NCBI RefSeq assembly: GCF_000007145.1
Contig: NC_003902.1
Span: 1,537,436 to 1,569,435 of the forward strand
Length of the DNA: 32,000 nt
Direction of reading: 5' to 3'
Source of the DNA: Xanthomonas campestris pv. campestris str. ATCC 33913
GTDB lineage: Bacteria > Pseudomonadota > Gammaproteobacteria > Xanthomonadales > Xanthomonadaceae
A program made the position numbers and the translations under genes. This document shows, in pieces, positions 1,745 to 17,150 of this stretch. Under the pieces are notes generated by a model, which saw nothing but the letters and a program-made list of their open reading frames with translations, was not told the DNA's origin and ran no database searches. Each line of letters begins with the position of its first letter. The stretch's first letter is position 1.

Positions 1745-1813
1745 GCGAAGCAATGCGCTTCGCGGCAGCACGTGGAACGATTATCTTTGGCCCACTCTTC
1801 CCGATGGTGCGAC

Positions 1814-3187: not shown

Positions 3188-3198
3188 CGAGCAGGGCA

Positions 3199-3226
3199 GC
3201 GCACCGCGTGATCGCACGCGGTGCGC
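3199..3226. terminator. Hairpin between the convergent acvB and mprF genes (possible bidirectional terminator)
   Basis: GCGCACCGCG (3199-3208), an 8-nt loop tgatcgca, then CGCGGTGCGC (3217-3226). This is a perfect 10-bp GC-rich stem inside the 54-nt gap between the two stop codons. There is no clear U-tract. Confidence 0.5.
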
Positions 3227-3241
3227 GGGTCAGTTATCGCG

Positions 3242-5806
3242 TCAGTCCTGCCGGCCCGGGTCTACCGAGATCAGCCGAGTGACATCCAGCAGCGCGGCGG
3301 GCAGATGCATGCCGCCGGGCGCGACCAGATAGCGTGGGCGCCAGGTCGGTGCGAACTTGGATTTGAAGCGGCGCAGCCCGCTGAAGCCATAGAAGCGTTC
3401 GCCATGCCGCGCCACCAAGCTGGCGAAGCGATTCCAGCGGCCAGCCAGCCGATGCTCGGCCAGGCCCGACAGCGGTGCCATGCCCAGCGAGAAGCGCGTG
3501 TAGCCGTTGGCATGGCCCCACAGGAACAGCTCGATAAACAGGAAATCCATGGTGCCCTTGGGTGCCTGCGCGCTGTGCCGCATCAGGTCCACCGACAACT
3601 CGCCGCCGGCAGGCGCGCACCACACATTGGCGAACGCCACGATCTTGCCCTCCGCCTCGGCAACCGCCATCGGAAACCGGCGCAGGTAGTCCGGGTCGAA
3701 ACTACCCAGCGAGAAGCCTTTCTCTTCGCCGGCCTTTTCGTCCAGCCATTGCTCGGAGACCTCGCCCAGCTCTGCCATCACCGCATCCACCTGCTCGGGC
3801 TGCAGCATGCGGAAGCTCAGGCCGCCGCGCTTGCCGCGGTTCCAGGCCTGGCGCAGGTCGGCGCGGTCGCGGCCTTCCAGGGTGAAGCCCTCCAGCGGCA
3901 CGATCGCTTCTTCGCCCAGCTTGACCAGGGTCAGGCCCATGTCCAGATAGGTCTGCCAGTATTTCTCGCCCACCTGGTAGAACACCGGGCGCAGGCCCAT
4001 GTGGTCGGCTTCCTCGCGGAAGCGCCAGATCAGCGCACGCGCCACCTCCGGCGGCCCGACCGGGTCGCCCATCGAGATCAGCGAGCCGCCGTAGCGCTGC
4101 ATCATCACAAAGCCCAGGCCCTTCTCATCACGCAGGAACGCCTTGTCGCCGGTGAGCGCCAGGCAGGCCTGGGTGTCGGCGCTGCTGGCCAGCACCGGTG
4201 CCAGGGCCTGCAAGGCTTGCGCATCGGCTGGCGGCATTGGCCGGCGACCGCCGCGCAATAGGCGTGCGGTGCCGAACAGGATCACGCCCACGCACAGGAT
4301 CAGCAGCGCACGCAGCGCACGCGGCGCATTGGCCGAGGTGGCGAACTGCCACCACAGGTCGTTGCTGTATTCGACATGGCTGTAGACGAAGAACAACAGC
4401 CAGAACGTGGCCACCAGCACCAGCCCCAGATTGCTCAGCCAGCGCCACGACCAGGCTTCGTCCAGCAGCGCGCCCTGGCGATAGAACTCCCGGCGTGCCG
4501 CCCACAAGGCCACTGCGGCCAGTGCGGCCGACAGCGACACCGAGATATGGCTGCCGCGCAGCAGCGACAGCGGCGGCAGCAACACGCACACGCCCAGTGC
4601 CAGCACCCAGGCCGAATGGCTGCGGCGTTGCAGGCCCTGGCCGATTAGCAACAGCAGCATGCCGCCCAGGCTGACCAGCAGGTGCGAGGTCTCGATCAGC
4701 GGCAGCGGCGCCACCTCCTGACGTGCGCGTGGCGTGGGCAGGGTGCCGTCGATCACCAGCGCCGCACCTACCGCAAACACCGCCAAGGCCAGGATCTGCG
4801 GCAGCCACGGCCGCAAGGTCTTCCACACCGTGCGCGCGGTGCTGGCACTGGCGCGCACCGGTGCGCGCAGGCCGGTGGCCGCGGCCATGGCCACCGAAAT
4901 CAGCAACGGCACGATGTAATACGTGACCCGGTACGCCAGCGCGGCCGCCAGCACCGCCGCCGGGGTGACATGCGGCAGCAGCTTGAGCAGGCTCCACTCG
5001 AACACGCCCAGGCCGGCCGGCACGGTGGAGATCAGCCCGGCCACCACCGCCACCAGCCAGATGCCGATGAAGCCGAAATAGCCGGTGCCCGGATCGGGCG
5101 GCAGCAGCACGTAGAACGCCGCCGCGGCCAGGCCCAGTTCGACCACGCTGAGCGCAGTCACGCCCAGCACGGTGGTGCGGTCGGGCAGCCAGAAGCGATG
5201 GCTGCGGATGCCGAATTCGCGTCCGTGCCGGCCCACCAGCACCAGCATCGCCAGGTAACCGGCCAGCAGCGCGATGCCGGCGATGCGAATGCCTTCGGCG
5301 GCGATCGGCAGTGCACGTGCGGCCGCTTCGGGTTCGAGCATCAGCGCAATGCCGAGCAGCACCCAGGCGCCGAAGATGAAGCCCAGCGTGCTCATCAGCA
5401 CCACTTGGCCGATCTCGGCCAGGGTCAGCCCCACGCTGCCGTAGCCGCGCAAGCGCACCGCGCCGCCGGTGAGCGCCGCAAAGCCCAGTGTCTGCCCCAC
5501 CGCGTGCGCCATGAAGGCGGTGATGCCCACCCGCGCCGGATGCAGGCGCTTGCCGGTGCGCTTGAGGCCCACCCAGTCGAAGCCCACCAGGCACGCATAG
5601 CTGCTCAGGCCAAGCAGCAAGGTGAGTGCGATCTGGCCGGCGCCGAGTGCGCGGAACGCCTGCCGGATCTGGCGGTAGCCGTGATCGGTGAATTGCGAGG
5701 ACAGCGCGTGCAGCGCCATGGCCAGGATCGCCAGGCTGATGATCACGGGCAGCGCACGGCGCCAGCCGCTGGCGGTCGCTTCGGAAGGCACGGGGGTATC
5801 CGTCAT
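3242..5806 (-). CDS. mprF: Bifunctional aminoacyl(lysyl/alanyl)-phosphatidylglycerol synthase/flippase MprF
   Basis: The track ORF of 1031 aa is an upstream read-through. The ATG at 5806..5804 (MTDTPVPSEATASGWRRALPVIISLAILA) gives 854 aa. The N-terminal half is polytopic membrane and the C-terminal half is a DUF2156/LPG-synthase-type cytoplasmic domain (GFVMMQRYGGSLISMGDP..., FYQVGEKYWQTYLDMGL...). Confidence 0.85.
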   Translation of the reverse strand: MTDTPVPSEATASGWRRALPVIISLAILAMALHALSSQFTDHGYRQIRQAFRALGAGQIALTLLLGLSSYACLVGFDWVGLKRTGKRLHPARVGITAFMAHAVGQTLGFAALTGGAVRLRGYGSVGLTLAEIGQVVLMSTLGFIFGAWVLLGIALMLEPEAAARALPIAAEGIRIAGIALLAGYLAMLVLVGRHGREFGIRSHRFWLPDRTTVLGVTALSVVELGLAAAAFYVLLPPDPGTGYFGFIGIWLVAVVAGLISTVPAGLGVFEWSLLKLLPHVTPAAVLAAALAYRVTYYIVPLLISVAMAAATGLRAPVRASASTARTVWKTLRPWLPQILALAVFAVGAALVIDGTLPTPRARQEVAPLPLIETSHLLVSLGGMLLLLIGQGLQRRSHSAWVLALGVCVLLPPLSLLRGSHISVSLSAALAAVALWAARREFYRQGALLDEAWSWRWLSNLGLVLVATFWLLFFVYSHVEYSNDLWWQFATSANAPRALRALLILCVGVILFGTARLLRGGRRPMPPADAQALQALAPVLASSADTQACLALTGDKAFLRDEKGLGFVMMQRYGGSLISMGDPVGPPEVARALIWRFREEADHMGLRPVFYQVGEKYWQTYLDMGLTLVKLGEEAIVPLEGFTLEGRDRADLRQAWNRGKRGGLSFRMLQPEQVDAVMAELGEVSEQWLDEKAGEEKGFSLGSFDPDYLRRFPMAVAEAEGKIVAFANVWCAPAGGELSVDLMRHSAQAPKGTMDFLFIELFLWGHANGYTRFSLGMAPLSGLAEHRLAGRWNRFASLVARHGERFYGFSGLRRFKSKFAPTWRPRYLVAPGGMHLPAALLDVTRLISVDPGRQD

Positions 5807-6064
5807 GGGGGCAACGGGATCTGCTGAAAGGAGGGGAGTGCGCACGCGCCGCGGAGGCAGCAAGTGCGAAGGATCTGCATGGGCCGGACAACGTGGGAGT
5901 GCATGCAGCGTGGTCGCGTGGGCGCCGGTGGAGGGTGAACACAGGGTTCGATCGGGCCGACACATTGTCGGCCCTGGACGGCCGCGCGCATCATAGGCCA
6001 AACGGGCGCATGCGTGCGGTTGGAACGAAACGATGCAAAGCGATGCAGTGAAGGTGCAGACAGG

Positions 6065-6766
6065 ATGTTGAAGCGTGAGATGGCGCAAGGCAGGGGAGCT
6101 GATGCACAGGCCGTGCCAGGCGCGCCGCCGCGCTGGAGCGCGCATGCCGGCAGCACCGCCGCCGTGGTTGGCGTGGCATTCGTCGTGCTGGTGCTGACCC
6201 TGCAACTGATGCGTGCCGACCTGGACTGGGTGGGCGCGCAACTGAGCCTGTATCTGCACGGGCCCTACGGGTTGGTACTGCGCACCGCTTATTGCGTGCT
6301 GGCCGCGAGCATGGCGTGGTTGGCGCTGGGCCTGCATGCCGCGCTGATGCCAACCGCGCGCAGCCGCACCGTGCTGGGCTTGTTCTGGGCCGCGGCACTA
6401 GGCCTGAGCGCAGTCTCGATCGGCGACAGCTGGATGCCGACGCTAGCGCCGAACGCGGCGTTGATGGTGCATCTGTTGTCCGCGCAGGCCGCGTTTCTAT
6501 GCGTGATTGCCGGGCTGCTGCTGCAGTCGTGGTATTTCCGCAACGACCCACGCTGGCGCAGCCGCTTCGTGCCGGCCTTCGGCCTGGGCCTGGTTGCGTT
6601 TGCGGTCTTGCTGTTCAACGTGAGCGTGCACACCGCGCCACGCGGCATCAGCCAGAAGACCGCCATCGTGCTGATCGTGATCTGGTTGACGCTGGTGGGC
6701 AGTTGGCTGGCACGCGCTGCACGTTCATCGCATTCGCGTGACAATGCCCGGGTCAACCAACCGTAG
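6065..6766 (+). CDS. Polytopic membrane protein, resembles the DUF998 family
   Basis: The ORF contains 5-6 hydrophobic helices. The track start 6014 is an alternative codon, and ATG 6065 (MLKREMAQG...) is the first ATG. Family assignment is from memory only. Confidence 0.55.
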   Translation: MLKREMAQGRGADAQAVPGAPPRWSAHAGSTAAVVGVAFVVLVLTLQLMRADLDWVGAQLSLYLHGPYGLVLRTAYCVLAASMAWLALGLHAALMPTARSRTVLGLFWAAALGLSAVSIGDSWMPTLAPNAALMVHLLSAQAAFLCVIAGLLLQSWYFRNDPRWRSRFVPAFGLGLVAFAVLLFNVSVHTAPRGISQKTAIVLIVIWLTLVGSWLARAARSSHSRDNARVNQP

Positions 6767-6777
6767 GAAGCCTGAAG

Positions 6778-7125
6778 ATGCTGCAGCGATTCGATACCGG
6801 CCCGCGTATGTCCGAAATGACCGTCCATGGCGGCGTGTGCTACCTCGCCGGGCAGATTGCCGACGACACCAGCGAAGACATCACCGGGCAGACCCGTCAG
6901 GTGCTGGCCGAGATCGACAAGCTGCTGGCGATGGCCGCCAGCGACAAGACCAAGATTCTGCGTGCGGAAATCTTTCTTGCCGACATCGCCGATTTCGACG
7001 GGATGAACAAGGCCTGGGACGAGTGGGTGCCGCATGGCTTCACCCCGGCACGCGCCACCGTGGAAGCCAAGCTGGCGCGCCCGGAGTGGAAGGTGGAGAT
7101 CGTGATCACCGCAGCAACGAGCTGA
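6778..7125 (+). CDS. RidA/YjgF/L-PSP family reactive-intermediate deaminase
   Basis: 115-aa ORF with an AGGAAG ribosome-binding site 7 nt upstream of ATG 6778. Typical family layout: GGVCYLAGQIA, ITGQTRQVLAEID, ILRAEIFLADI, ARATVEAKLARPEWKVEI. Confidence 0.8.
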   Translation: MLQRFDTGPRMSEMTVHGGVCYLAGQIADDTSEDITGQTRQVLAEIDKLLAMAASDKTKILRAEIFLADIADFDGMNKAWDEWVPHGFTPARATVEAKLARPEWKVEIVITAATS

Positions 7126-7175: not shown

Positions 7176-7196
7176 GTCGGCAGCATGGCTGCCGAC
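7176..7196. terminator. Hairpin between convergent ridA-like gene and the last gene of the lipid operon
   Basis: GTCGGCAGC, loop atg, GCTGCCGAC. This is a perfect 9-bp stem with a 3-nt loop in the 97-nt convergent spacer. There is no U-tract. Confidence 0.4.
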
Positions 7197-7222: not shown

Positions 7223-8293
7223 TCAGCGCTTGGCGAAGCGGTAATGCGCCACGCCCCATTCGCGGCCTTCGTCGTAGCCGAACAGCTCCGCGCAGGCCAG
7301 CCAGAACATGCGCCAGCGCTGCCACCAGCGCTGTGCATCCTCGCCGTAGGTCTGCCGCAGCAGCGGCATGATCTGTTCGCGGTGCCGGTCCTGGTTTTCC
7401 AGCCAGGCATTGGCGGTCTTTTCGTAATGCTCGCCGGACAACACCCAGCGCTGTTCGATCACCACATCCTGCTGAAACTGCAGCAGCGTATCGGCCGCCG
7501 GCATCAGCCCGCCGGTGAAGAAGTGCCGCCCCATCCAGTTGTCTTCGCCGGCCACTTCGAACGGGTAGGCCAGGTCGCGGTGGCAGAAGATATGCACGAA
7601 CAGCTTGCCGCCCGGCGCCAGCCAGCTGCCGATCCGCGACAGCAGCTCGCGGTAGTTGCGCATGTGCTCGAACATTTCCACCGAGACCACGCGATCGAAG
7701 CTGTCAGTGGGCAGTGCCAGCGCATTGACGTCGGCGGTGATGACCTGCACGTTGCTCAGCCCGCGCACGCGGCACTGTTCCAGGATGTGCGCGCGCTGCG
7801 GCCGCGAATTGGACACCGCGGTGATGCTGGCATTCGGATAGCGCTCGGCCATCCACAAGGTGAGCGAGCCCCAGCCGCAGCCCAGCTCCAGGATGCGCTG
7901 GCCATCGGCCAGTTCGGCGCGCTCGCCGTACAACGCCAGCATGCGCAGTTCGGCCGCGTCCAGGTCCGGCGTGGTCGCGTCCCAGTAACAGCTGCTGTAT
8001 TTCAGGCGCCGCCCCAGGCATAGGGTGAAGAACTGCGGGGGCAGCTCGTAATGCTGGCGATTGGCGGCATCGGTTTCGATCGCGATGGCGCTGCCGCGCA
8101 GGCTGTCGATGAAGGTGCGTTGGCGCTCGCCGCTGGCATCGGCGCCATCGCGGCGTTCGTCCAGCAGGCGCTGCGCGCATAGACGGCGGATGCCGTAACG
8201 CAACGCGGCATCGGGCAGCACGCCGGATTCGGCCAGGCGGGTGGCAAAGCCTTCTTCGGGATGCGCGGAGGGCGGGATGGTGACAGTGGACAT
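7223..8293 (-). CDS. SAM-dependent methyltransferase of the cyclopropane/mycolic-acid synthase (CMAS) family, second paralog in the operon
   Basis: The track ORF of 490 aa is over-extended. The ATG at 8293..8291 (MSTVTIPPSAHPEEGF) gives 356 aa. SAM-binding motif ILELGCGWGSLTLWMAERYP is present, and DRVVSVEMFEHM plus the C-terminal WRMFWLACAELF are typical of the CMAS fold. It lies 17 nt downstream of the DUF1295 gene. Confidence 0.85.
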   Translation of the reverse strand: MSTVTIPPSAHPEEGFATRLAESGVLPDAALRYGIRRLCAQRLLDERRDGADASGERQRTFIDSLRGSAIAIETDAANRQHYELPPQFFTLCLGRRLKYSSCYWDATTPDLDAAELRMLALYGERAELADGQRILELGCGWGSLTLWMAERYPNASITAVSNSRPQRAHILEQCRVRGLSNVQVITADVNALALPTDSFDRVVSVEMFEHMRNYRELLSRIGSWLAPGGKLFVHIFCHRDLAYPFEVAGEDNWMGRHFFTGGLMPAADTLLQFQQDVVIEQRWVLSGEHYEKTANAWLENQDRHREQIMPLLRQTYGEDAQRWWQRWRMFWLACAELFGYDEGREWGVAHYRFAKR

Positions 8294-8310
8294 GCGACTC
8301 TCCAGGCGAA

Positions 8311-9093
8311 TCAGGACGAAGGGGGAAGCGGGAAAAATGCGCTGGTGCTGCGTTGATACTGGGCGTAGTCCTCGCCACGCGAGCGCAGTGCCTGCTGCTC
8401 GGTATAGGGGATGCCGGTAAAGCGATACAGGAACACGAACATCACCACCGGGCCCAGCGCACACAGCGCCAGCAGCCACGGCCCCGCACCGACCGCCAGG
8501 GCCAGGTACGCAAACCAATGCACGAATTCGAAGAAGTAATTGGGATGCCGCGAATAGCGCCAGAGCCCGGTGCGACACGTCTTGCCGCGGTTGGCCGGGT
8601 TGGCCTTGTGCGCAGACAACTGCCGGTCGGCCAGCGCCTCGCCGCCGACGGCGATCAACCACACCACAATCGCCAGGCTGCTCCACACGCTCCATGCCGG
8701 GTTCGGGTTGCTGGCCGCGGCTAGGAACGGCACCGAGAACAGCACCACCACCATCGCCTGGGCCAGGAAAAAGCCCAGGAACTTGCGCTGATCGCCGTTC
8801 CAGTGCTCACGCAGGGCGCGGTAGCGGCCATCCTCGTGGGGGTCGCCGAACACGCGCACGCCCAGGTGCCAGGCAAGCCGTGCGCCCCACACGCCGCCGA
8901 GCACCGCCACCAGCACGCGTGGCAGCAGCGCACCCTCGGACATCCACGCGCAGTAAGGCGCAGCAACCGCCAGGCAGCCTGCCCATAACACGTCCACCGG
9001 GCCGGCGTTGCCACTGCGGCGTTGCCACAGCCAACCCAACACCATCACCACGGCGGCGAACACGCCGACATGCAGCAGCGGCCAGACAGTCAT
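8311..9093 (-). CDS. DUF1295 / steroid-5-alpha-reductase-like membrane protein
   Basis: 260-aa polytopic ORF with the C-terminal signature GLWRYSRHPNYFFEFVHWFAY, typical of the DUF1295/ICMT-like superfamily. Its ATG overlaps the upstream stop codon (ATGA at 9090-9093). Confidence 0.8.
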   Translation of the reverse strand: MTVWPLLHVGVFAAVVMVLGWLWQRRSGNAGPVDVLWAGCLAVAAPYCAWMSEGALLPRVLVAVLGGVWGARLAWHLGVRVFGDPHEDGRYRALREHWNGDQRKFLGFFLAQAMVVVLFSVPFLAAASNPNPAWSVWSSLAIVVWLIAVGGEALADRQLSAHKANPANRGKTCRTGLWRYSRHPNYFFEFVHWFAYLALAVGAGPWLLALCALGPVVMFVFLYRFTGIPYTEQQALRSRGEDYAQYQRSTSAFFPLPPSS

Positions 9094-9635
9094 TGCGGGT
9101 CTCCAGTGATGGGCTCAAACGCGGGGCGTGCCAGGCGCCGGGCATACAGCGAGAGCAGGCCGCAGGCCGCGCCCCAGCCAATCGCCAGCGCCAGCACCGC
9201 ACTGCGCTGCGGTGCCAGCAATTCGATGGCCTGCCAGCTGCGCTCGGCCAGCCAGTACGACAGCGGCCCGAAGACCGCGCCCAGCACAACCGCCAGCCAC
9301 GGGCGCTGCATCACCGTTGCCAGTGAATGATTGAGCGTGAGCGCAAATCCCAGCCAGAGCGCCAGGATCCACGCCGGCGCGAGCACGCTGCCCGGCCACG
9401 GCGCGGCGTAGCGCACCCAGTCGCCTGCGGCCAGTGTGGTGTCCAGCAACAGCCCCAGTGCGACGGCGGCCAGCAGCAACTGCCAGTCGCCGCGCGCGCG
9501 CCGCGTGGGCCACAGTTGGTAGAGCGCAAACAGCGCCAACGCCAGCAGCGTGGGCCACACGCGCCCACGCGCGGCTGAGCTGACCGCCACCAGCCACAGC
9601 ACCTGCAAGCCGACGTAGTTGCCCAGCTGCTTCAT
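9090..9635 (-). CDS. Small polytopic membrane protein, resembles DUF2878
   Basis: This is the C-terminal 181 aa of the 523-aa track ORF, beginning at ATG 9635..9633 (MKQLGNYVGLQVLWLVAV). It has about 5 hydrophobic helices. Both ends overlap neighbouring genes by ATGA (9632-9635 and 9090-9093). Family name is from memory of similar cfa clusters. Confidence 0.6.
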   Translation of the reverse strand: MKQLGNYVGLQVLWLVAVSSAARGRVWPTLLALALFALYQLWPTRRARGDWQLLLAAVALGLLLDTTLAAGDWVRYAAPWPGSVLAPAWILALWLGFALTLNHSLATVMQRPWLAVVLGAVFGPLSYWLAERSWQAIELLAPQRSAVLALAIGWGAACGLLSLYARRLARPAFEPITGDPQ

Positions 9636-10927
9636 GCGGCGCTGCTCAACCCGGGCACGAACTGCGGCGGACGTGCGCCCGGCTTGCTCAACCACAGATG
9701 CACATCGCCGATCGAGCGTTCCAGGAAACCGGCTTCGCAATAGGCCAGATAAAATTCCCACATGCGGATGAAGCGCTCGTCGTAGCCCAGTGCGCGCACC
9801 TGCGGCAGTTGCGCCATGAAGCGCTGCCGCCACGCACGCAGGGTCAGTGCATAGCTGGGGCCGATGTCTTCCAGATTGAACAGGCGCAGATCGCTGGCGC
9901 GGCCGATGGCGCCGGTCATCGCCGCCACCGAGGGAATGAAGCTGCCCGGGAAGATGTGCCGCTTGATGAAGTCCACCGAGCGCAACGCCTGCGCATAGCG
10001 ATGGTCTTCGATGGTGATCGCCTGGATCAGCGCCTCGCCCTCGTCGGTCAGCAGGCTGCCGACCTTGGCGAAGTAGGTGTCCAGGTATTGGTGCCCGATG
10101 GCCTCGATCATCTCGATCGACACCACGCGGTCGTAGTGGCCTTCCAGGTCGCGGTAGTCGCGCAGCAGCACCGTCACGCGCTCGCTCAAGCCGGCTGCAG
10201 CGATGCGCTGGGTGGCCAGTTCGAACTGTTCGCGCGAGATGGTCGTGGTGGTGACGCGGCAGCCATGTTCGCGTGCGGCATGCAGTGCAAACCCGCCCCA
10301 GCCGGTGCCGATTTCCACCACATGGTGCTGCGGGCCAAGGCGCAGTTTTTCGCAGATGCGTTCCAGCTTGCGGGTGGCTGCGCGCTCTAGCGCCGCCTCG
10401 CCCTGCGCTTCTTCGCCGTCGACGAAGATGGCCGAGGAGTACATCAGGTTGGCATCCAGGAACAACCGGAACAGCGGGTTGCCCAGGTCGTAATGCGCCG
10501 CGATGTTGCGCCGGCTGCCGCTGCGCGTATTGCGTGCCAGCGTATGCAGGCTGCGCATGGCCCAGCCGCCCAGGCGGGCGGTGCCGGTCTCCATCGCGTC
10601 CAGTCGGTCGCGGTTGCGCAGCAGCAGGCGCATCAGCGTCACCAGATCGTCGCACTGCCAATCGCCATCCATGTAGGCCTCGCCGGCGCCGACACTGCCG
10701 TTGAGCGCGGCCTGCCGATAGAAGCGCGGGTCGGTCACCCGCAACTGGGTCTGCAGCGCCTGCGTGCCGCTGGCATTGCCGAGGGTGGTGACGCGATCGG
10801 CTTCATGCAGCTGCAGCTGCCCATCGCGCAGGTCGCCCAGTGTGGCCAGCAGCCGCTTGCGCAACAGACGATCGGTCCACGAGGCCGCGCGCGGCGCGGC
10901 AGTGTCGGGCAGGGAGGTGGCACTCAT
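9632..10927 (-). CDS. cfa: Cyclopropane-fatty-acyl-phospholipid synthase family methyltransferase
   Basis: ATG at 10927..10925 (MSATSLPDTAAP...) gives 431 aa. SAM motif VVEIGTGWGGFALHAAREHG is present. Other matches are NIAAHYDLGNPLFRLFLD, DRVVSIEMIEAIG and WEFYLAYCEAGF, all classic for CFA synthases. The start overlaps the DUF1365 stop (ATGA at 10924-10927). Confidence 0.9.
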   Translation of the reverse strand: MSATSLPDTAAPRAASWTDRLLRKRLLATLGDLRDGQLQLHEADRVTTLGNASGTQALQTQLRVTDPRFYRQAALNGSVGAGEAYMDGDWQCDDLVTLMRLLLRNRDRLDAMETGTARLGGWAMRSLHTLARNTRSGSRRNIAAHYDLGNPLFRLFLDANLMYSSAIFVDGEEAQGEAALERAATRKLERICEKLRLGPQHHVVEIGTGWGGFALHAAREHGCRVTTTTISREQFELATQRIAAAGLSERVTVLLRDYRDLEGHYDRVVSIEMIEAIGHQYLDTYFAKVGSLLTDEGEALIQAITIEDHRYAQALRSVDFIKRHIFPGSFIPSVAAMTGAIGRASDLRLFNLEDIGPSYALTLRAWRQRFMAQLPQVRALGYDERFIRMWEFYLAYCEAGFLERSIGDVHLWLSKPGARPPQFVPGLSSAA

Positions 10928-11805
10928 GAGCGTTCTCGCACAGGCGGAGTGGGGTGATCGTGGACGGGGTTGCCGCGCAGCCACAGGCGCAGTGCCTGCC
11001 AATGGATGGCCAGCACCACCTGCACGGTCATCAAGGGGTAGCCAAGCAGCGTGCGCGCCAGCGTGCCTGCGGTCAGCGGCTGGCGCTGCAGCACCAGCGT
11101 GGCGTCGAAGCGGCGCGCCTGCTGCGCAGGGGGTTGCGGCGTGGCGTCGATGGCATCCAGCACATCCATGTGCACGCGCAGGTGTTCGGTGGGCACGCTG
11201 AAGCGCCAGTCGTAGTGGTGCTGCATGCCCATGAACGGCGACACGTGGAAGCGTTTATCGAAGCGCCAGGCATGCACATCCCGATGGCTGCGCGCCTGCG
11301 CCACCGGCAGCACATAGGTGTGGCGCTGCTGCCAGGGCGTGTTGGTGATTTCGGCCACAATCCAGCGCAGCCCGTCGTGGCGGTCGAAGCAGTAGTAGAA
11401 GCTGACCGGATTGAATACATGGCCGAAGTAACGCAGGTGCGTGAGCAGGCGGATCGCACCGTCCGGGCGGTCGCCGGTGTGGGCCTGCACGCAGTCGCGC
11501 ACGGCCTGGTCCAGCGGCACCTGCGGGTCGCCCAGGTAGTCGCTGCGGCGGAACTGCGCCAGATTCGCGCGGCCCACCGACCACAGCCAGCGGCGCGCAA
11601 AGACGTGCTCCAGCTCGGCCAGATCCAGATACATCAGGAACAGGCGGTAGCGGAATTGCAGCGGCTTGGGGGCGTAGCGGCGGTGCCGCACCCAGCCGGT
11701 ATAGATGGCGCTGCGCAACGGGCCGTGCAGCCGTCCGGTACCACCGCCCTCGGTGGGCGGCAGTGGAACGGCATCGGTGATCGCTTCGCGCAGCAGCTGG
11801 GTCAC
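10924..11805 (-). CDS. DUF1365 family protein
   Basis: SAIYTGWVRHRRYAPKPLQFRYRLFLMYLDLAEL and THLRYFGHVFNPVSFYYCF are characteristic DUF1365 blocks. There is no in-frame ATG near the N-terminus. A GTG at 11805..11803 overlaps the upstream TGA (GTGA), and a second GTG lies at 11808. Start confidence is low but gene confidence is high. Confidence 0.8.
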   Translation of the reverse strand: MTQLLREAITDAVPLPPTEGGGTGRLHGPLRSAIYTGWVRHRRYAPKPLQFRYRLFLMYLDLAELEHVFARRWLWSVGRANLAQFRRSDYLGDPQVPLDQAVRDCVQAHTGDRPDGAIRLLTHLRYFGHVFNPVSFYYCFDRHDGLRWIVAEITNTPWQQRHTYVLPVAQARSHRDVHAWRFDKRFHVSPFMGMQHHYDWRFSVPTEHLRVHMDVLDAIDATPQPPAQQARRFDATLVLQRQPLTAGTLARTLLGYPLMTVQVVLAIHWQALRLWLRGNPVHDHPTPPVRERS

Positions 11806-13052
11806 CACGGCACTCCCAGTGCATGCGCCACGTCCACGCCGCTGCGCAGGCCATCTTCGTGGAAGCCGAAGCCCCACGCCGCGCCGGCAAACCAGGTGTG
11901 CCGCTGGCCCTGGATCTGCGCCTTGCGCGCCTGCGCATCGAGTGCGGCGGCGTTCTGCACCGGGTGGCGGTAGCGCATGCGGCGCAGCACTTTCTCCGGT
12001 GCGATGTCCTGGTCGCGATTGAGGCTGACGATGAACGGCTGCGGTGCGTTGATCGACTGCAGCGCGTTCATCCAGTAGCTCACCGTGCACGGCGCCTGCG
12101 GGTCGGCCGGCACATGCGCATTCCAGGCCGCCCAGGCGCGGCGGTCGCGCGGCAGCACGCTGGCATCGGTGTGCAGCACGGTGTCGTTGTTCTGGTAGGT
12201 GATGGCGCCCAGGATCTGCTGCTCGGCAGGCGTGGCATCGCTGAGCAAGGCCAATGCATCGTCGGCATGGCAGGCGAGTACCACCTCGTCGAAATGCTCG
12301 TCGCCGCGCAACGAGGTCACGACCACGCCGTTGCCAGCCCGGCGGACGGCGTGCACCGGCGTGGACAGGCGTTCCTGCACCTGCCAACGCCGCCGCAACG
12401 CGCGCACATAGCTCGACGAACCACCGCGCACCACCTGCCACTGCGGCCGTCCGCTGATCTGCAGCATGTGGTGATTGGCCATGAAGCCGATCAACTGGCC
12501 CATCGGAAATTCGAGAATGCGTTGCGAGGGCGAGGACCACAGCGCCGAGGCCATCGGCACCAGGTGCTGGTCGCGAAAGGTGTCCGAATAGCCGTGCCGG
12601 TGCAGGTACTCGCCCAACGTGCTGAAACGCTCGTCGCTGGTCAGTACCGCAGGCGCCTGCCGGTAAAAACGCCGCAGATTGGCCAGCATGCCCCAGAAGC
12701 GTGGGCTGAGCAGGTTGCGGCGCTGGCAGAACAGCCCTCCGAGCGAGCCGGCGTTGTATTCGAGCCCGCTGCGCGCGTCGTGCACCGAAAAACTCATGGT
12801 GGTGGACTGCGACGCCACGTCGATTTCGGCAAACAACCGGGTGAGTAAGGGGTAGTGCTGCGGGTTGAACACGATGAAGCCGCTGTCCACCGCGTAACGC
12901 TGGCCCTCCAGCTGGATGTCATGCGTGTGCGTGTGGCCGCCGAGATAATCGGCGGCCTCGAACAGCGTCACTTCGTAACGCCGCGACAGCAGCCATGCGG
13001 CGCCCAGGCCAGCGATTCCACTGCCGACCACCGCGATCCTGCCACCGCTCAT
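11802..13052 (-). CDS. FAD-dependent amine-oxidase/phytoene-desaturase-like oxidoreductase
   Basis: ATG at 13052..13050 (MSGGRIAVVGSGIAGLGAAWLL) gives a Rossmann GxGxxG dinucleotide-binding N-terminus and 416 aa. The start overlaps the desaturase stop (ATGA at 13049-13052). The rest of the 591-aa track ORF is read-through. Confidence 0.85.
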   Translation of the reverse strand: MSGGRIAVVGSGIAGLGAAWLLSRRYEVTLFEAADYLGGHTHTHDIQLEGQRYAVDSGFIVFNPQHYPLLTRLFAEIDVASQSTTMSFSVHDARSGLEYNAGSLGGLFCQRRNLLSPRFWGMLANLRRFYRQAPAVLTSDERFSTLGEYLHRHGYSDTFRDQHLVPMASALWSSPSQRILEFPMGQLIGFMANHHMLQISGRPQWQVVRGGSSSYVRALRRRWQVQERLSTPVHAVRRAGNGVVVTSLRGDEHFDEVVLACHADDALALLSDATPAEQQILGAITYQNNDTVLHTDASVLPRDRRAWAAWNAHVPADPQAPCTVSYWMNALQSINAPQPFIVSLNRDQDIAPEKVLRRMRYRHPVQNAAALDAQARKAQIQGQRHTWFAGAAWGFGFHEDGLRSGVDVAHALGVPW

Positions 13053-14050
13053 CGCGCCACCCGTCCGGCGCGTCGCGTCAGCATGGCGGGCATCGGTTTG
13101 AGATCCCACACCAGGCCCACCCACGACATCACCGTGAGCCCGTACCAGGTCATGTCGTATTCCCACCAACGCACGCCCTGGCGCGCCGAGCCGGGAAAGA
13201 AATGATGGTTGTTGTGCCAGCCCTCGCCGAAGGTGAGCAGCGCCAGCAACCAGTTGTTGCGGCTGTCGTCGCGGGTGTCGAAGCGCCGGCTGCCGAAGCG
13301 GTGCGCCAGCGAATTGATGGTGAAGGTGGCATGGAACAACGCCACCGTGGACAGCACGAAGCCCCACACCAGCAACTGCGCGCCACTGGTGTGCAGGCCA
13401 GGCGCTGCAGCCGCCAGCCAGTCGCCCAGCAGGTACAGGCCCAGTGCCAGCAGCACCGGCATCACGATGTCGAAGCGGTCCAGAAATCGCAGCTCGGTGA
13501 AGCGGCGCAGATCCGGAATCACTTCCCAATCGGTGCGGAAATTGCGCGGGGTCAGGAACCAGCCGGTATGGCTCCACCAGAAGCCGTGCTGTGCCGGCGA
13601 ATGCGGGTCACGGCCGGTGTCGGTATGCCGGTGATGGTTGCGATGGTGTGCGGCCCACCACAGCGGCCCACGTTGCACGCAGGTGGCGGCGATCGCGGCG
13701 AACACGAACTGCACCACGCGCGAGGTCTTGAATGCGCGGTGCGAGAAATAGCGGTGATAGAACCCGGTCAGCGCGAACATGCGCAGCGCGTACAGCGCCA
13801 CGGCCATGCTCACTGCGAACCACGACACACCGACCCAGAACACCGCAAAGCAGGCCAGGTGCAAGGCGATGAACGGCAGCGCACGCAGCCAGTCGATGCG
13901 GTCCGCGCGGGCTTCGTCCAGCGGTTCGTCGGTTTGCGAATCCACCCAGCGACGCAGGCTGCCGAACCGCCGGGCCTTGCCCGCGCGCTGTGGCGGGGTG
14001 GCGGGGTGGGGCGTGGGTGCGACGCGGGGGTCGAGTCCAGAGCTCGGCAC
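13049..14050 (-). CDS. Membrane fatty-acid (acyl-CoA/acyl-lipid delta-9 type) desaturase
   Basis: Three histidine boxes are present: HRYFSH, HHRNHHRH and HNNHH, with hydrophobic segments between them. The track start at 14098 is a TTG. I prefer GTG 14050..14048 because GGAGAA sits 6 nt upstream, giving 333 aa. The start is uncertain within about 50 nt. Confidence 0.85.
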   Translation of the reverse strand: MPSSGLDPRVAPTPHPATPPQRAGKARRFGSLRRWVDSQTDEPLDEARADRIDWLRALPFIALHLACFAVFWVGVSWFAVSMAVALYALRMFALTGFYHRYFSHRAFKTSRVVQFVFAAIAATCVQRGPLWWAAHHRNHHRHTDTGRDPHSPAQHGFWWSHTGWFLTPRNFRTDWEVIPDLRRFTELRFLDRFDIVMPVLLALGLYLLGDWLAAAAPGLHTSGAQLLVWGFVLSTVALFHATFTINSLAHRFGSRRFDTRDDSRNNWLLALLTFGEGWHNNHHFFPGSARQGVRWWEYDMTWYGLTVMSWVGLVWDLKPMPAMLTRRAGRVAR

Positions 14051-14078
14051 GCATGGTTCTCCGTGGTGGATGGGACCC

Positions 14079-14107
14079 TTTACGGATGCTGCCGACAAAC
14101 AGATGCA
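14079..14107 (-). promoter_or_regulatory. Candidate ECF-type promoter P1 of the lipid-modification operon (TGCATC-N17-CGTAAA)
   Basis: The minus strand reads gTGCATC tgtttgtcggcagcatc CGTAAA. The -10-like element ends 28 nt upstream of GTG 14050. The same GCATC-N17-CGTA core recurs at 17123-17150 with the same geometry. Confidence 0.45.
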
Positions 14108-14181: not shown

Positions 14182-14212
14182 AAAAACATCCGCGCAAAGC
14201 GCGTGCGCGCGG
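14182..14212 (-). terminator. Rho-independent-terminator-like hairpin with a T5 run, downstream of the anti-sigma gene
   Basis: The minus strand reads CCGCGC gcacgcgcttt GCGCGG atg TTTTT gtgtg. This is a GC-only 6-bp stem (an alternative is CGCGC-ttt-GCGCG) followed by a T-run that is rare in this GC-rich DNA. It lies between the sigma/anti-sigma unit and promoter P1. Confidence 0.45.
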
Positions 14213-14367
14213 ACGAGTCTGCTTTGCCAGAAGAAGAAAACGGCTGCACGGCTGCGCGGCAGGCGCTGACGGTGCGCAGGTGCAGCAGCTCGCTCGAACG
14301 ATGCCGTGCGTGCGCATGGTCCGTGCTGCTGGACGACGGCGCGCGAGGTGTTTGCCAATGACGCTGC

Positions 14368-14395
14368 CAGCGGCATCCTTTGACGGATGCCGCTG
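14368..14395 (-). other. Perfect 11-bp stem-loop 11 nt downstream of the anti-sigma stop codon
   Basis: CAGCGGCATCC (14368-14378), loop tttgac, GGATGCCGCTG (14385-14395). No U-tract follows on the minus strand. It could be a terminator, an RNA-stability element or a processing element. Confidence 0.35.
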
Positions 14396-14406
14396 CACTC
14401 AGGCGA

Positions 14407-15246
14407 TCAAGGCGCCATGGCCAACGTGCTGATGCCGCCCTTGGCCACCACGGTGCCGGTGGCCACGCCGCCCGGCGCACCACCCGGTGGTTCCAGGGTG
14501 ACGGCCAGGATCGCCTCGTTGCTGAGCATCGGCATCAACGGCGCCGGGATCGACGCGCGCCGCGCACGCTGGTCGTCGAACACGCCCATCGAGTGCGCCT
14601 TGCCATCGGGGGTGATCAGCCACAGTTCCGGCACCTTGCCGGCGGTGGCGGTGCGATCCAGCGGCGTCACGGTGATGACCTGCTTGTCGGCATCCATCAA
14701 CGCCACATAGCCTGGGCGCCCATCGGCGGTGGCCAGTGTGGAGGTCATCGCAATGCCGGTTGCCGGTGGCTTGGCCGGCGGTGTCTGCACGATCGGCGTG
14801 TTCTGCACCGGGCCAGATGGCGGCGCGGTCGGCGGGGCGCGCACGCTCAGCAAGGCCAGCACGCAGACCGCTGCAGTGGCCAGGCCACCGGCACTGGCCC
14901 AGCGCCAGAAGCGCACGCTGTTCCATAGCGGAACCGCCGCCGGTGGCGCCGGGCTCTGCACGCCGGATGCGGGCACCGCATGCAACGGTGTATCGAAGCC
15001 CAGTGCCTGGCGCACACGCGTCCAGACCTGGTCGGCCGGTGTCACCGCGGCGATTTCTTCCAGCAGCGGCGCCAGATGTTCTTGCCATTGCGCCACTGCC
15101 TGCGCGAACTGCGCATCGGTGGCGATGCGCTGCTCCACGGCCAGACGGTCGTCGGCGCTGAGCAGGCCCAGCACATACTCGCCGGCCAGCACGTCGCGGG
15201 GTGGTTCCTGGTCGATGGGGAAGGGCGTGCTCATCGTTCCAGACAT
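14407..15246 (-). CDS. Anti-sigma factor, RskA (anti-sigma-K) type, single-pass membrane protein
   Basis: N-terminal anti-sigma domain (LAGEYVLGLLSADDRLAVEQRIATDAQFAQAVAQWQEHL) without an HxxxCxxC zinc motif. One TM helix (WRWASAGGLATAAVCVLALLSV) follows. The C-terminal RskA-like domain has PELWLITPDGKAHSMGVF and ILAVTLEPPGG. Two candidate ATGs exist: 15246, and 15234 which overlaps the sigma stop (ATGA at 15231-15234). Confidence 0.8.
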   Translation of the reverse strand: MSGTMSTPFPIDQEPPRDVLAGEYVLGLLSADDRLAVEQRIATDAQFAQAVAQWQEHLAPLLEEIAAVTPADQVWTRVRQALGFDTPLHAVPASGVQSPAPPAAVPLWNSVRFWRWASAGGLATAAVCVLALLSVRAPPTAPPSGPVQNTPIVQTPPAKPPATGIAMTSTLATADGRPGYVALMDADKQVITVTPLDRTATAGKVPELWLITPDGKAHSMGVFDDQRARRASIPAPLMPMLSNEAILAVTLEPPGGAPGGVATGTVVAKGGISTLAMAP

Positions 15247-15794
15247 GCCTTGAGTTTGGCCAGACCCCGGCGGATCCAGCTTTTGACCGTGCCAATCGGC
15301 GTATCGGTGCGCTCGGCCAGTTCTTCGTAGGTGATGCCTTCGAAGAACGCGGTGCGGATCAGCTCGCTGCGCGGCGGTTCCAGTTCGGCCAGGCAGTGAT
15401 CGATGCGGCGGCGCGTGGTGAGGCGTTCGGCGCGCTCCAACGGCGAGGCATCGGCCGAGCGCAGTTCGCCGGCATCGTCCAACGCCACGTTACGGCGCTG
15501 CGGCGCGGTGGCGCGCAGATGGTCGATGGCCTTGTTGCGCGCAATCATCGCCAGCCAGGTCAGCCCGCGCGCACGGCTCGGGTCGAACTGCCCGGCCTTG
15601 TGCCAGATCAGCGTAAACACGTCCTGCAGCACTTCTTCGGCTTCGGCGCGCTGCGGGATCATGCGCAGGCATACCCCGAACAGCTTGGGCGAGGTTTGCC
15701 GGTACAACGCTTCGAAGGCGTGGCGGTCGCCGCCCGCCGTTGCGGTGAGCAGGCGTCCGGTCTCATCGTCGTCGTGGCCAGGAATGGCACTCAT
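15231..15794 (-). CDS. ECF (group IV) sigma-70 family RNA polymerase sigma factor
   Basis: ATG at 15794..15792 (MSAIPGHDDDETGRLL) gives 187 aa. Region 2 is DVFTLIWHKAGQFDPSRARGLTWLAMIARNKAIDHLR and region 4 is ELIRTAFFEGITYEELAERTDTPIGTVKSWIRRGLAKLKACL. The remainder of the 362-aa track ORF is read-through into the upstream gene. Confidence 0.9.
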   Translation of the reverse strand: MSAIPGHDDDETGRLLTATAGGDRHAFEALYRQTSPKLFGVCLRMIPQRAEAEEVLQDVFTLIWHKAGQFDPSRARGLTWLAMIARNKAIDHLRATAPQRRNVALDDAGELRSADASPLERAERLTTRRRIDHCLAELEPPRSELIRTAFFEGITYEELAERTDTPIGTVKSWIRRGLAKLKACLER

Positions 15795-15852: not shown

Positions 15853-16221
15853 TCATCGGTGCTTGAACCACAGCAGCACGGCGGCGAGCAGCAGCAGGAT
15901 TTCCACACCCGCCAGTGCCACCGTTGGCGCGGAGACCGGCCACAGGCGCGAGAGCGAGACGGTGCGGAACAGCACGATGGGCACGTAGAACGCCAGTGCG
16001 ACCAGCAGGCCGGTGCGCGGTTGATCGATCCAGGCGAAATAGCCGAACAGGAAGGCCATGCCCAACTGCAGCCCGCCATAGATGACCAGGTATTCGGACT
16101 GGCCAGCCGGCGACAGCTGCGTGTAGCCCACCGCCGTGGCGGTCTTGCTTGGCGAGAGGGTGCACCAGATCGCCAGGACGACATAGAGCACTGCGTTGAT
16201 CCAGAGATAGGCCTTGGCCAT
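15853..16221 (-). CDS. Small 4-TM membrane protein, resembles DUF4345
   Basis: ATG at 16221..16219 (MAKAYLWINAVLYVVLAIW) gives 122 aa with four hydrophobic helices. An AGGAG ribosome-binding site lies 8 nt upstream. It sits 58 nt upstream of the sigma gene on the same strand. Confidence 0.6.
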   Translation of the reverse strand: MAKAYLWINAVLYVVLAIWCTLSPSKTATAVGYTQLSPAGQSEYLVIYGGLQLGMAFLFGYFAWIDQPRTGLLVALAFYVPIVLFRTVSLSRLWPVSAPTVALAGVEILLLLAAVLLWFKHR

Positions 16222-16303: not shown

Positions 16304-17092
16304 TCACGGCACGTCGCATCGCGCAACCAGCGGTTGCTCGCGGGCCTGGCGCAGCGACTCGGCGTTGGCTGGCTGCGCCGGTGTGTCGGGAAACACGATG
16401 CGCACGCGCGGATAGCGGCCATTGGCATCGCGCAGATTGCCCACGCCACGGAATTCCAGTAGGCGCTTGTCGGCGATGGCATAGGTGACTTCCAGGGCCG
16501 GCAGCGCCGCGCCATACCAGGCATCCAGGCTGACCTTGTAGCGGCGCTGCCCGGCGGTTTCGCCGATGCGTTGCACGCGGAACGTCAGTTGCCGCTGCAG
16601 GCTGGGCAACACGAATTCCACCTGCTGCGCAGCGCTGCCAAGGGCGGCCCAGTGCGTGCGCAGATACGCATCGAAGCCGGCATCGATGACGCGTGGCGTC
16701 TCGGTCGCCGGCAGTGCGGTGCGGCGTTCCGGCTTGCCCGGGAGCTGCTGGTACATCTCGCGCACACCGTCGCGCTGCCGCACGCCTTCGCGATAACCAT
16801 CGCGGCCATCGACCAGGCTGAAATTGGGCGCACTGCCGCCGCCATCGACCTGTTTGCGCGCGAACGGCTGCCCGTCCTTGCAGCGGTACAGCACCAACCG
16901 CCCGCCGTCATCGAGCAGCCAATGCGACTCGCGGTAGCGCAGCGCACCGCTGTCGCCATCGAAGGCATCGCCGTCGACGCGGGTGACCGCGGCGGCAGCG
17001 CCCAACGGCAGGCAGGCCAGCACCAATAGCAGCAACGGCGGTTTGGGGCGGCAAAGCGTGGCGAGCTTGGTAACGGCGGCGGGCAGGCGCAT
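16304..17092 (-). CDS. Exported protein of unknown function, with a signal peptide and possible lipobox LVLAC
   Basis: 262-aa ORF starting at ATG 17092, with GAGGAA 8 nt upstream. Hydrophobic N-terminus PPLLLLVLACLPLGAAAAV. The remainder is hydrophilic with no motif I recognise. Third-position GC is high, consistent with real coding sequence. Confidence 0.6.
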   Translation of the reverse strand: MRLPAAVTKLATLCRPKPPLLLLVLACLPLGAAAAVTRVDGDAFDGDSGALRYRESHWLLDDGGRLVLYRCKDGQPFARKQVDGGGSAPNFSLVDGRDGYREGVRQRDGVREMYQQLPGKPERRTALPATETPRVIDAGFDAYLRTHWAALGSAAQQVEFVLPSLQRQLTFRVQRIGETAGQRRYKVSLDAWYGAALPALEVTYAIADKRLLEFRGVGNLRDANGRYPRVRIVFPDTPAQPANAESLRQAREQPLVARCDVP

Positions 17093-17122: not shown

Positions 17123-17150
17123 GATACGAGCGCGTCCGCAGCACGGATGC
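17123..17150 (-). promoter_or_regulatory. Candidate ECF-type promoter P2 of the exported-protein / membrane-protein / sigma / anti-sigma unit (GCATCC-N16-CGTATC)
   Basis: The minus strand reads cCGCATC cgtgctgcggacgcgct CGTATC. The -10-like element ends 30 nt upstream of ATG 17092. The core GCATC-N17-CGTA is identical to P1 at 14079-14107. Confidence 0.45.

Follow-up and report, generated by a model that had tools for sequence, protein, structure and literature searches.

Furan fatty acids are potent radical scavengers, and to our knowledge their biosynthesis in bacteria is known only from two α-proteobacteria. In Rhodobacter sphaeroides, a methylase resembling cyclopropane fatty acid (CFA) synthase, UfaM, converts phospholipid cis-vaccenate to 11-methyl-12-trans-18:1, the flavoprotein UfaD (RSP1091) makes the 10,12-diene, and UfaO (RSP1090), a DUF1365 protein, uses O2 to form the methyl-furan fatty acid; in Rhodopseudomonas palustris, RPA2571-2570-2569 are ufaD-ufaO-ufaM in that order, and FufM (RPA0924), with 26% identity to UfaM, attaches a further methyl, all of these steps acting on phospholipid-bound chains (PMC7380195). 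Here we describe a locus with a similar gene core in Xanthomonas campestris pv. campestris ATCC 33913. It lies in a stretch of 32,000 nucleotides (NC_003902.1, positions 1,537,436 to 1,569,435; hereafter the window, with positions counted from its first letter; G+C ∼67%), in which seven minus-strand genes, A to G, run head to tail across 7223-14050.

Related gene clusters have been reported from other bacteria, where they were approached as stress regulons. The PSPTO_1121-1114 operon of Pseudomonas syringae belongs to the PSPTO_1043/ChrR regulon, has the promoter aGATCC-N16-CGTA, and is induced by singlet oxygen and tert-butyl hydroperoxide (PMC5507510). In Stenotrophomonas maltophilia, all genes of smlt2375-2367 are induced 165-700-fold upon deletion of chrR in a sigma-dependent manner (PMC11832516, published in 2025). 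The first five encode a periplasmic hypothetical protein, an acyl-CoA desaturase, an FAD (flavin adenine dinucleotide) oxidoreductase, a hypothetical protein and CfaS2, and the last four encode two membrane hypothetical proteins, CfaS1 and a lipocalin; deletion of the cluster reverts menadione tolerance and ceftazidime susceptibility, and its authors read it as a cyclopropane-type lipid modification and never mentioned furan fatty acids (PMC11832516). In Mycobacterium tuberculosis, sigK controls its own expression through the Rv0449c promoter, and SigK also controls rv0445c-0449c.

Seven coupled genes with a Ufa-like core

We consider it fairly probable that genes A to G constitute one operon, controlled by an extracytoplasmic function (ECF) sigma factor, that would remodel phospholipid acyl chains towards methylated furan fatty acids. 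The furan assignment draws on the adjacency of genes for an FAD oxidoreductase, a DUF1365 protein and a CMAS-family methylase, which recurs in Rhizobium, Aeromonas, Ralstonia, Acinetobacter, Streptomyces and P. syringae, and on the established functions of UfaM, UfaD, UfaO and FufM together with the R. palustris gene order. It also draws on the C-terminus of G, which matches peptides encoded by fufM primers, on a desaturase-like gene A with intact His boxes, and on the recurring pairing of F and G. The overlaps between the genes, a conserved promoter, a second copy of its motif at the sigma unit and the co-induction of the S. maltophilia cluster argue for a single stress-sigma unit.

Genes B, C and D have the order and the families of RPA2571-2569. 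The same order is found in P. syringae PSPTO_1118-1116 (an amine oxidase-type flavoprotein, a hypothetical protein listed as the RSP_1090/UfaO ortholog, and cfa), although that operon starts with a photolyase and an SDR gene, is served by a ChrR-type anti-sigma factor and has no reported desaturase (PMC5507510). A sequence-only reading of this DNA had proposed a core resembling UfaD, UfaO and UfaM, accompanied by three membrane proteins of unassigned role; both points held up, with likeness to the characterized proteins judged by synteny and proxies. One such proxy is a Paracoccus locus, FAD-DUF1365-MFS-SDR, with a layout mirroring that of R. sphaeroides; its FAD/DUF1365 pair has 41% and 32% identity to ours. 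Gene B (11802-13052, minus strand, 416 residues), in the UfaD position, encodes an FAD oxidoreductase of the amine-oxidase/phytoene-desaturase type, with Pfam matches to Amino_oxidase, NAD_binding_8 and DAO and a GSGIAG motif at the N-terminus. It is 41-50% identical to the FAD protein ahead of DUF1365 in Paracoccus, Rhizobium, Aeromonas, Ralstonia, Acinetobacter and Streptomyces, and a UfaD-type gene directly upstream of the DUF1365 gene was present in every related locus examined. Gene C (10924-11805, minus strand, 293 residues), in the UfaO position, covers positions 1-235 of the 235 in the DUF1365 profile (PF07103, 287 bits), which places it in the UfaO family, and is 98% identical to an X. 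campestris protein cluster. Its AlphaFold2 (AF2) model (pLDDT 82.8) is a beta-barrel; we found no solved sequence relative, and a fold search with the model gave only weak beta-barrel resemblances, none significant.

Upstream of this core, gene A (13049-14050, minus strand, 333 residues) encodes a membrane di-iron fatty-acid desaturase of the stearoyl-CoA desaturase (SCD, delta-9) type (Pfam FA_desaturase, 93.6 bits). Residues 54-321 align with mouse SCD1 (4YMK, E = 1.3e-27), and all three His boxes (HRYFSH, HRNHH and HNNHH) align as well; with at least three hydrophobic segments, the protein has both the HxxxxH, HxxHH, HxxHH pattern and the integral membrane character of SCD-like desaturases. 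It is 59% identical to the 'acyl-CoA desaturase' heading the same operon on an Acinetobacter plasmid. Hydropathy analysis gave several hydrophobic segments for each of A, E and F and none for B, C, D or G.

The six junctions, read from the sequence and checked by translation, comprise five 4-nt start/stop overlaps and one 17-nt gap, all on the minus strand: ATGA at 13049-13052 (A stop/B start), GTGA at 11802-11805 (B/C), ATGA at 10924-10927 (C/D), 9632-9635 (D/E) and 9090-9093 (E/F), and a spacer with GGAG at 8294-8310, between F and the start of G at 8293. The sequence-only reading had placed each of them correctly, and a Pfam search agreed with the family it gave to each of the seven proteins. 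It had, however, carried the coding region up to 14107; gene A most likely starts at GTG 14050 behind a GGAG, an arrangement shared with X. nasturtii, and 14081-14107 is a promoter motif. TTG 14098 was rejected as the start because it falls inside that motif and because the GGAG of GTG 14050 is conserved in both Xanthomonas loci.

The boundaries of the unit are marked on both sides. A 9-bp G+C hairpin (7176-7196, minus strand, fold z-score −2.9) begins 27 nt past the stop codon of G, and beyond it lies a convergent RidA gene (6778-7125, plus strand, Ribonuc_L-PSP match), so the operon likely ends at this hairpin. On the other side, the stop codon of the neighboring anti-sigma gene is 356 nt from gene A, and the spacer at 14182-14397 (minus strand) contains two hairpins (z-scores −3.9 and −2.6): a strong one directly after the anti-sigma stop (14365-14397) and a terminator-like one with a U-run at ∼14182-14222, which together indicate that A to G form a unit of their own. 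We found no terminator-like site on the coding strand inside A to G. With the overlaps, the conserved promoter and the end hairpin, this bears out the single translationally coupled operon that had been claimed.

The arrangement is not peculiar to this strain. A profile search of genome contigs with a diverse DUF1365 alignment yielded the 80 closest loci, from Lysobacterales and some Burkholderiales, and gene content was scored in the 58 with enough flank. Gene B was present in 58/58, D in 57/58, G in 55/58, A in 54/58, F in 52/58 and E in 43/58, and the order was nearly always A-B-C-D-(E)-(F)-G, an arrangement far beyond chance. The genera include Xanthomonas, Pseudoxanthomonas, Lysobacter, Thermomonas, Luteimonas, Stenotrophomonas, Rhodanobacter, Rudaea and Aquimonas, among others, and in some Burkholderiales G-E-F stands beside A-B-C-D. 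More distant loci have other combinations of the same families: desaturase-FAD-DUF1365-CFA-DUF1295-methyltransferase on an Acinetobacter plasmid; MerR-GTP cyclohydrolase-FAD-DUF1365-CFA-DUF1295-short CFA in Ralstonia, with DUF2878, lipocalins and photolyases nearby; DUF1295-short CFA divergent from FAD-DUF1365-CFA in Rhizobium tropici, with a ChrR pair; MerR-photolyase-SDR-FAD-DUF1365-CFA-DUF2878 in Aeromonas; and, on a Streptomyces plasmid, sigK and an anti-sigma gene divergent from FAD-DUF1365-CFA-DUF1295. In Chlamydomonas, the genes induced by singlet oxygen in a SAK1-dependent manner encode CFA1, CFA2, DUF1365, DUF1295 and DUF2177 proteins; CFA2 is annotated as coclaurine N-methyltransferase-like, and the family set is that of the bacterial loci (PMC4067076).

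It could be argued that the seven genes are merely adjacent and are transcribed or used separately, their tight packing being incidental, since E and F are missing in some relatives and G-E-F is set apart from A-B-C-D in some Burkholderiales. We regard this as very improbable, because it must be set against the five overlaps, a single conserved promoter with no internal terminator-like site, a gene order kept in dozens of genera and the uniform induction of the S. maltophilia cluster genes (PMC11832516).

Two unlike methyltransferases and two small membrane proteins

Gene D (9632-10927, minus strand, 431 residues) encodes a long CMAS-family S-adenosylmethionine (SAM) methyltransferase (Pfam CMAS, 251 bits) in the UfaM position; its start overlaps the stop of C, so that a CMAS methylase is linked to the ufaD-ufaO pair as in RPA2571-2569. 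The methylases that occupy this position in Rhizobium, Aeromonas, Acinetobacter, Ralstonia and Streptomyces share 39-53% identity with D. Although D clearly resembles E. coli Cfa (6BQC, E = 6e-56), it scores below the NCBIfam CFA-synthase cut-offs (262.6 vs 400 for PRK11705, and 282.8 vs 600), as does gene G (142.6 vs 400), and neither scores as a canonical cyclopropane synthase equivalent to E. coli Cfa. Gene D furthermore has Gln in place of Cfa His266, which we take to be one of the bicarbonate ligands of Cfa. Gln occupies this position in 80 of 80 methylases adjoining FAD-DUF1365 (sources: Lysobacterales, Burkholderiales, Rhizobium, Aeromonas, Acinetobacter, Ralstonia and Streptomyces), and His is kept in five solved enzymes (the Cfa proteins of E. 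coli, L. acidophilus and A. aeolicus, MmaA1 and CmaA1). Judged from these alignments, the Gln may be a signature of non-cyclopropanating UfaM-type enzymes.

Gene G (7223-8293, minus strand, 356 residues) is a short CMAS methyltransferase of the coclaurine-N-methyltransferase-like (putatively FufM) type (Pfam CMAS, 124.5 bits). It shares 27.6% identity with D, much as FufM shares 26% with UfaM, so that a distant short second methylase accompanies the first in both systems. Its match to coclaurine N-methyltransferase (6GKV) is full length with E = 2e-73, vs 1.8e-26 to Cfa, and its closest solved relatives are plant benzylisoquinoline (coclaurine, pavine) N-methyltransferases; plasmid-borne relatives in Acinetobacter, Burkholderia, Ralstonia and Rhizobium are 43-57% identical.

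The comparison with FufM used the peptides encoded by the published fufM primers in place of the full-length protein. These primers encode MSGLASL at the N-terminus, DEWGV at ∼1030 nt into the gene, and RLKPA followed by the stop codon at the C-terminus. The C-terminal motif of G, EWGVAHYRF, matches the DEWGV and RLKPA-stop peptides at the expected ∼1030 nt. G-type proteins end in E-W-x-V-x-H-Y-[RL]-F and then basic residues or Pro, as in EWGVAHYRFAKR here, and W-G-[VI] occurred in the last 60 residues of 0 of 76 D-type proteins; among the G-type proteins compared, the exact WG[VI]xHY form was confined to two Xanthomonas loci and two others. Judging from the primer-encoded peptides, G is probably a short methylase of the FufM type, in line with the FufM-like second methylase proposed from the sequence. 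A 21-mer from the fufM start, taken from the published primers, matched 13 unrelated metagenome contigs, and homologues of the short methylase of Rhizobium tropici were, among the matches listed, all from Rhizobiaceae with at least 73% identity.

Between the two methylases lie the genes for E and F. Gene E (9090-9635, minus strand, 181 residues) encodes a small DUF2878 membrane protein (137 bits) with at least three hydrophobic segments; a DUF2878 gene also follows the methylase in Aeromonas and is found nearby in Ralstonia and Cupriavidus. Gene F (8311-9093, minus strand, 260 residues) encodes a DUF1295 membrane protein (281 bits) of the steroid-5-alpha-reductase/ICMT/PEMT superfamily, with weaker Pfam matches to Steroid_dh (E = 6.6e-7), ICMT and PEMT and a weak match to the solved ICMT 4A2N; the Pfam and PDB matches do not separate a reductase from a methyltransferase (NADPH vs SAM as cofactor), and SRD5A, ICMT and sterol reductases have a fold in common. 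A DUF1295 gene lies directly upstream of the G-type methylase in Ralstonia, Acinetobacter and Rhizobium. In R. palustris the gene ahead of fufM, RPA0923, overlaps it by ATGA, in the position where elsewhere a DUF1295 gene precedes the G-type gene, and we note the likeness of a second methylase preceded by a translationally coupled gene. Since F and G are always coupled, F probably has a part in the second methylation or in handling the lipid substrate of that step; we infer that E and F are accessory membrane proteins. A 587-residue protein cluster with 54 member sequences (P0300) has DUF1295 fused to a short CMAS methylase, which hints that F and G act together but could be an assembly or read-through artefact.

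These enzymes could also be arranged towards a different end product. If F acted as a C=C reductase and A set a different double-bond position, the phospholipid acyl chains would be modified but the product would be methyl-branched or methylene (tuberculostearic-like), cyclopropane or a methylated diene. UfaA1 (Rv0447c) of M. tuberculosis, from an analogous SigK-controlled cluster, was once reportedly a tuberculostearic acid methyltransferase, and the Steroid_dh match of F would suit a reductase, but the sequence does not tell whether its cofactor is NADPH or SAM. D is a CMAS-family protein, and the S. maltophilia authors took both methylases as CFA synthases and saw no singlet-oxygen phenotype (PMC11832516); D nevertheless falls below the CFA-synthase cut-offs and has no equivalent of His266. 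The presence of a tightly coupled DUF1365 gene, the sole known function of which is furan ring formation, and an FAD-DUF1365-CMAS order identical to that of the proven furan fatty acid genes, lead us to consider a non-furan product unlikely, if by no means negligible.

Conserved promoter and varying regulators

An ECF-type promoter motif, TGCATCT-N16-CGTA, precedes the operon at 14081-14107 (minus strand), with a predicted transcript start ∼7 nt downstream and a leader of ∼25 nt that has GGAG before the GTG. It is the sole exact match to TGCATC-N16-18-CGTA in the window. The conserved form, TGCATCC-N16-CGTA(T), emerged from an alignment of the sequences that precede the desaturase gene in 18 loci where an RskA-type pair is adjacent. 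In 45 of 61 related loci the motif is found no more than 200 nt ahead of the desaturase gene (background, 0.04 sites per kb), with a spacer of 16 nt in 42 of the 45, and it occurs alike in loci with RskA-type, ChrR-type and neither regulator. It nearly equals the ChrR-sigmaE promoter, TGATCC-N16-CGTA, defined experimentally for the ChrR-partner sigma factor of P. syringae (PMC5507510). The Ufa pathway and, by prediction, the Xanthomonas operon share ECF sigma control with an almost identical promoter class. GCATCC at 14083-14088 was rejected as a −35 element because it falls in the spacer of the conserved motif, and a sigma-70 promoter scan of the region gave no match. Two copies of the string GCATCCGT(C)AAAGG are present, one within the hairpin that follows the anti-sigma stop (14365-14397) and the other across the −10 region of the operon promoter (14083-14094), which may be coincidence.

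A relaxed pattern located a second copy of the motif, GCATCC-N16-CGTA, at 17125-17150 (minus strand), 33 nt ahead of orf262, with which the unit encoding the sigma factor begins. This is a probable autoregulatory promoter; in other RskA-type loci the motif is also found upstream of orf262, the DUF4345 gene or the sigma gene. The ECF sigma factor (15231-15794, minus strand, 187 residues) has ECF regions 2 and 4 and is SigK-like. It scores above the cut-off of NCBIfam PRK12534 (414.9 bits) and below that of the SigK subfamily model PRK09646 (142.9 vs 226 bits); its best solved relatives are about equal (M. tuberculosis SigK 4NQW, 7.5e-24; R. sphaeroides RpoE 2Q1Z, 1e-23), and its identity is 33% with Streptomyces SigK and 29% with the sigma factor that partners ChrR in S. 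maltophilia. An ECF classification paper has nothing on this sigma group (PMC7671368). The start of the anti-sigma gene (14407-15234, minus strand) overlaps the sigma stop (ATGA), so that, in silico, the gene overlap and the upstream ECF motif describe a co-transcribed, autoregulated pair.

The anti-sigma factor has one transmembrane segment (residues 113-131) and a periplasmic RskA_C domain (PF10099, 77.9 bits vs a cut-off of 29.4), which makes it an RskA-type protein; its NCBIfam score of 96.7 is just below the cut-off of 100. A Pfam search of it gave no match to Cupin_7 (ChrR), and the pair is thus not of the SigmaE-ChrR (ECF11) kind, in contrast to the ChrR of the Ufa system. The sequence-only reading had likewise called the regulator RskA-like rather than ChrR, and that part stands, but such wiring is not unusual: SigK/RskA-type pairs lie beside the module in Streptomyces and, by the literature, in M. 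tuberculosis. The Streptomyces locus has a SigK-type sigma factor and an RskA-type anti-sigma factor next to genes for an FAD oxidoreductase, a DUF1365 protein, a CFA-family methylase and a DUF1295 protein, as in Xanthomonas, although the actinobacterial loci do not have the desaturase, DUF2878 and second methylase genes, and BLAST detected no similarity between the N-terminal domains of the anti-sigma factors.

Among the 58 related loci, the neighboring regulator was an RskA-type pair in 18 and a ChrR-type pair in 15, with neither within reach in 25. A locus of S. maltophilia STE2 (L075) has an anti-sigma factor with Cupin_7 beside the same operon. Loci with a ChrR-type pair (L075, L078, L020, L023, L026 and L047) and those with an RskA-type pair (L064, L068, L070 and the window) have the same operon and motif, and the regulator type differs inside a single bacterial order and even within Stenotrophomonas. 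This looks like a swap of the regulator that keeps the promoter class. In Rhodanobacter a photolyase gene and TspO lie beside the operon, and the photolyase, TspO and ChrR neighbors in sister loci tie the module to a photo-oxidative stress regulon.

The S. maltophilia genes smlt2374-2368 are colinear with A to G and have the same annotations in order, the likeness to strain K279a being judged by annotation; A to G are 57-69% identical to the corresponding proteins of Stenotrophomonas loci, and GCATCC-N16-CGTA is present in two of these (L075 and L078). From these comparisons, the S. maltophilia cluster is apparently orthologous to A to G. It differs from the Xanthomonas operon in being divergent from rpoEc-chrR-chrA, a ChrR-type arrangement, and in ending with a lipocalin gene, for which the Xanthomonas operon has no counterpart.

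Orf262 (16304-17092, minus strand) encodes an exported protein without a Pfam or NCBIfam family match. It has 819 homologues; among the 120 listed, those with a named source are nearly all from Lysobacterales. Foldseek matched its AF2 model (pLDDT 90.4) to LolA (2W7Q, E = 1.3e-4) and RseB (2V43, E = 7.5e-4), and the predicted fold is of the LolA/LolB/RseB-like lipid-binding kind. Between orf262 and the sigma gene lies a gene for a small DUF4345 membrane protein with three hydrophobic segments (15853-16221, minus strand; 27.0 bits vs a Pfam cut-off of 26.5), to which tblastn found matches in loci of Xanthomonas, Pseudoxanthomonas and Rudaea (L001, L003 and L014).

The position of orf262 raises the question of whether the products of the operon are mainly regulatory, with the modified lipid or an intermediate feeding back on the anti-sigma factor and orf262 sensing the lipid. 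Such feedback is suggested in R. sphaeroides, where full activation of sigmaE and rapid degradation of ChrR require UfaM and UfaD (RSP2144 and RSP1091; PMC3546557). Orf262, with its predicted lipid-binding fold, is the first gene of the sigma unit here and travels with the operon in ChrR-type loci, where it lies directly upstream of the desaturase gene. However, contact between orf262 and the anti-sigma factor is a supposition, the TM-scores of orf262 to RseB are low (0.27-0.31), and the ChrR-type anti-sigma factors are annotated as cytoplasmic or inner-membrane proteins, whereas orf262 is exported. Feedback of this kind is also compatible with the biosynthetic reading rather than exclusive of it. 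We judge a mainly regulatory role to be improbable.

Other lipid-related genes were observed just downstream of the operon (1772-6766): a VirJ/AcvB-like protein (1772-3187, plus strand), an MprF-like lysyl-phosphatidylglycerol synthase (open reading frame 3242-6337, C-terminal domain 330 bits, with its true start probably close to 5800) and a DUF998 membrane protein (6014-6766, plus strand).

Proposed pathway and its reach

In the furan fatty acid pathway that we favor, the RskA_C-type membrane anti-sigma factor would hold the sigma factor inactive until an envelope or oxidative signal arrives, upon which the SigK-like sigma factor would read the promoter at 14081-14107. The induced enzymes would act on acyl chains already esterified in membrane phospholipids. 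Gene A, as an SCD-like, O2-dependent desaturase, would introduce a cis double bond into a saturated chain; D, as a UfaM-type SAM methylase, would convert the cis-monoene to a methyl-branched trans-alkene; B, as a UfaD-type flavoenzyme, would add a second, conjugated double bond; C, of the DUF1365/UfaO type, would use O2 to close the diene into a methyl-furan ring; and G, as a FufM-type methylase, would place a second methyl on the ring to give a dimethyl furan fatty acid. The steps of D, B, C and G are those shown for α-proteobacterial homologues and are carried over to Xanthomonas by synteny and family membership, and we infer the first step, that of A, from its family.

Several observations weigh against this pathway. 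At the His266 position D departs from all five solved CMAS enzymes compared, and the nearest solved relatives of G are N-methyltransferases, not C-methyltransferases. The Xanthomonas operon lacks the MFS, 185-residue and SDR genes of the R. sphaeroides operon and adds an SCD-like desaturase, DUF2878 and DUF1295 to the Ufa gene set; because R. sphaeroides makes its furan fatty acid without these three, the extra genes could change the product. Finally, tolerance to singlet oxygen was unchanged in S. maltophilia, where only menadione tolerance and ceftazidime susceptibility were altered (PMC11832516).

More tentatively, the locus can be read more broadly: the operon would be a self-contained line from saturated phospholipid chains to dimethyl furan fatty acids; DUF1295 and DUF2878 would be unrecognised components of the pathway, and the methylases with Gln for His266 would form a separate clade that does not cyclopropanate; this module would be the lipid half of the actinobacterial SigK regulon, M. 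tuberculosis Rv0446c-Rv0449c included, the protein families of which are our assumption; and it would also be the 'Cfa9' cluster of S. maltophilia. That all of these hold together is doubtful, though we think it worth stating.

The operon is of a kind already known, given that a colinear, apparently orthologous cluster has been described as an ECF regulon (PMC11832516), and its novelty is therefore lower than the sequence-only reading had implied. No paper found in our literature search links the Ufa pathway, the S. maltophilia cluster and the SigK regulon. The locus connects three literatures without mutual citation, namely those on the Ufa/FufM pathway, on the sigmaEc regulon of S. maltophilia and on the SigK-RskA regulon. 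It suggests that plant-pathogenic Xanthomonas, many Lysobacterales, Acinetobacter plasmids and Burkholderiales have an extended furan-type version of this chemistry under a stress sigma factor. It offers a compact system for assigning functions to DUF1295, DUF2878 and the LolA/RseB-like exported protein, and it allows one to ask why genera differ in whether ChrR or RskA serves the same operon and promoter. If the broader reading were true, the formation of furan-type lipids would be a widespread response to envelope stress under ECF control, with effects on susceptibility to antibiotics.

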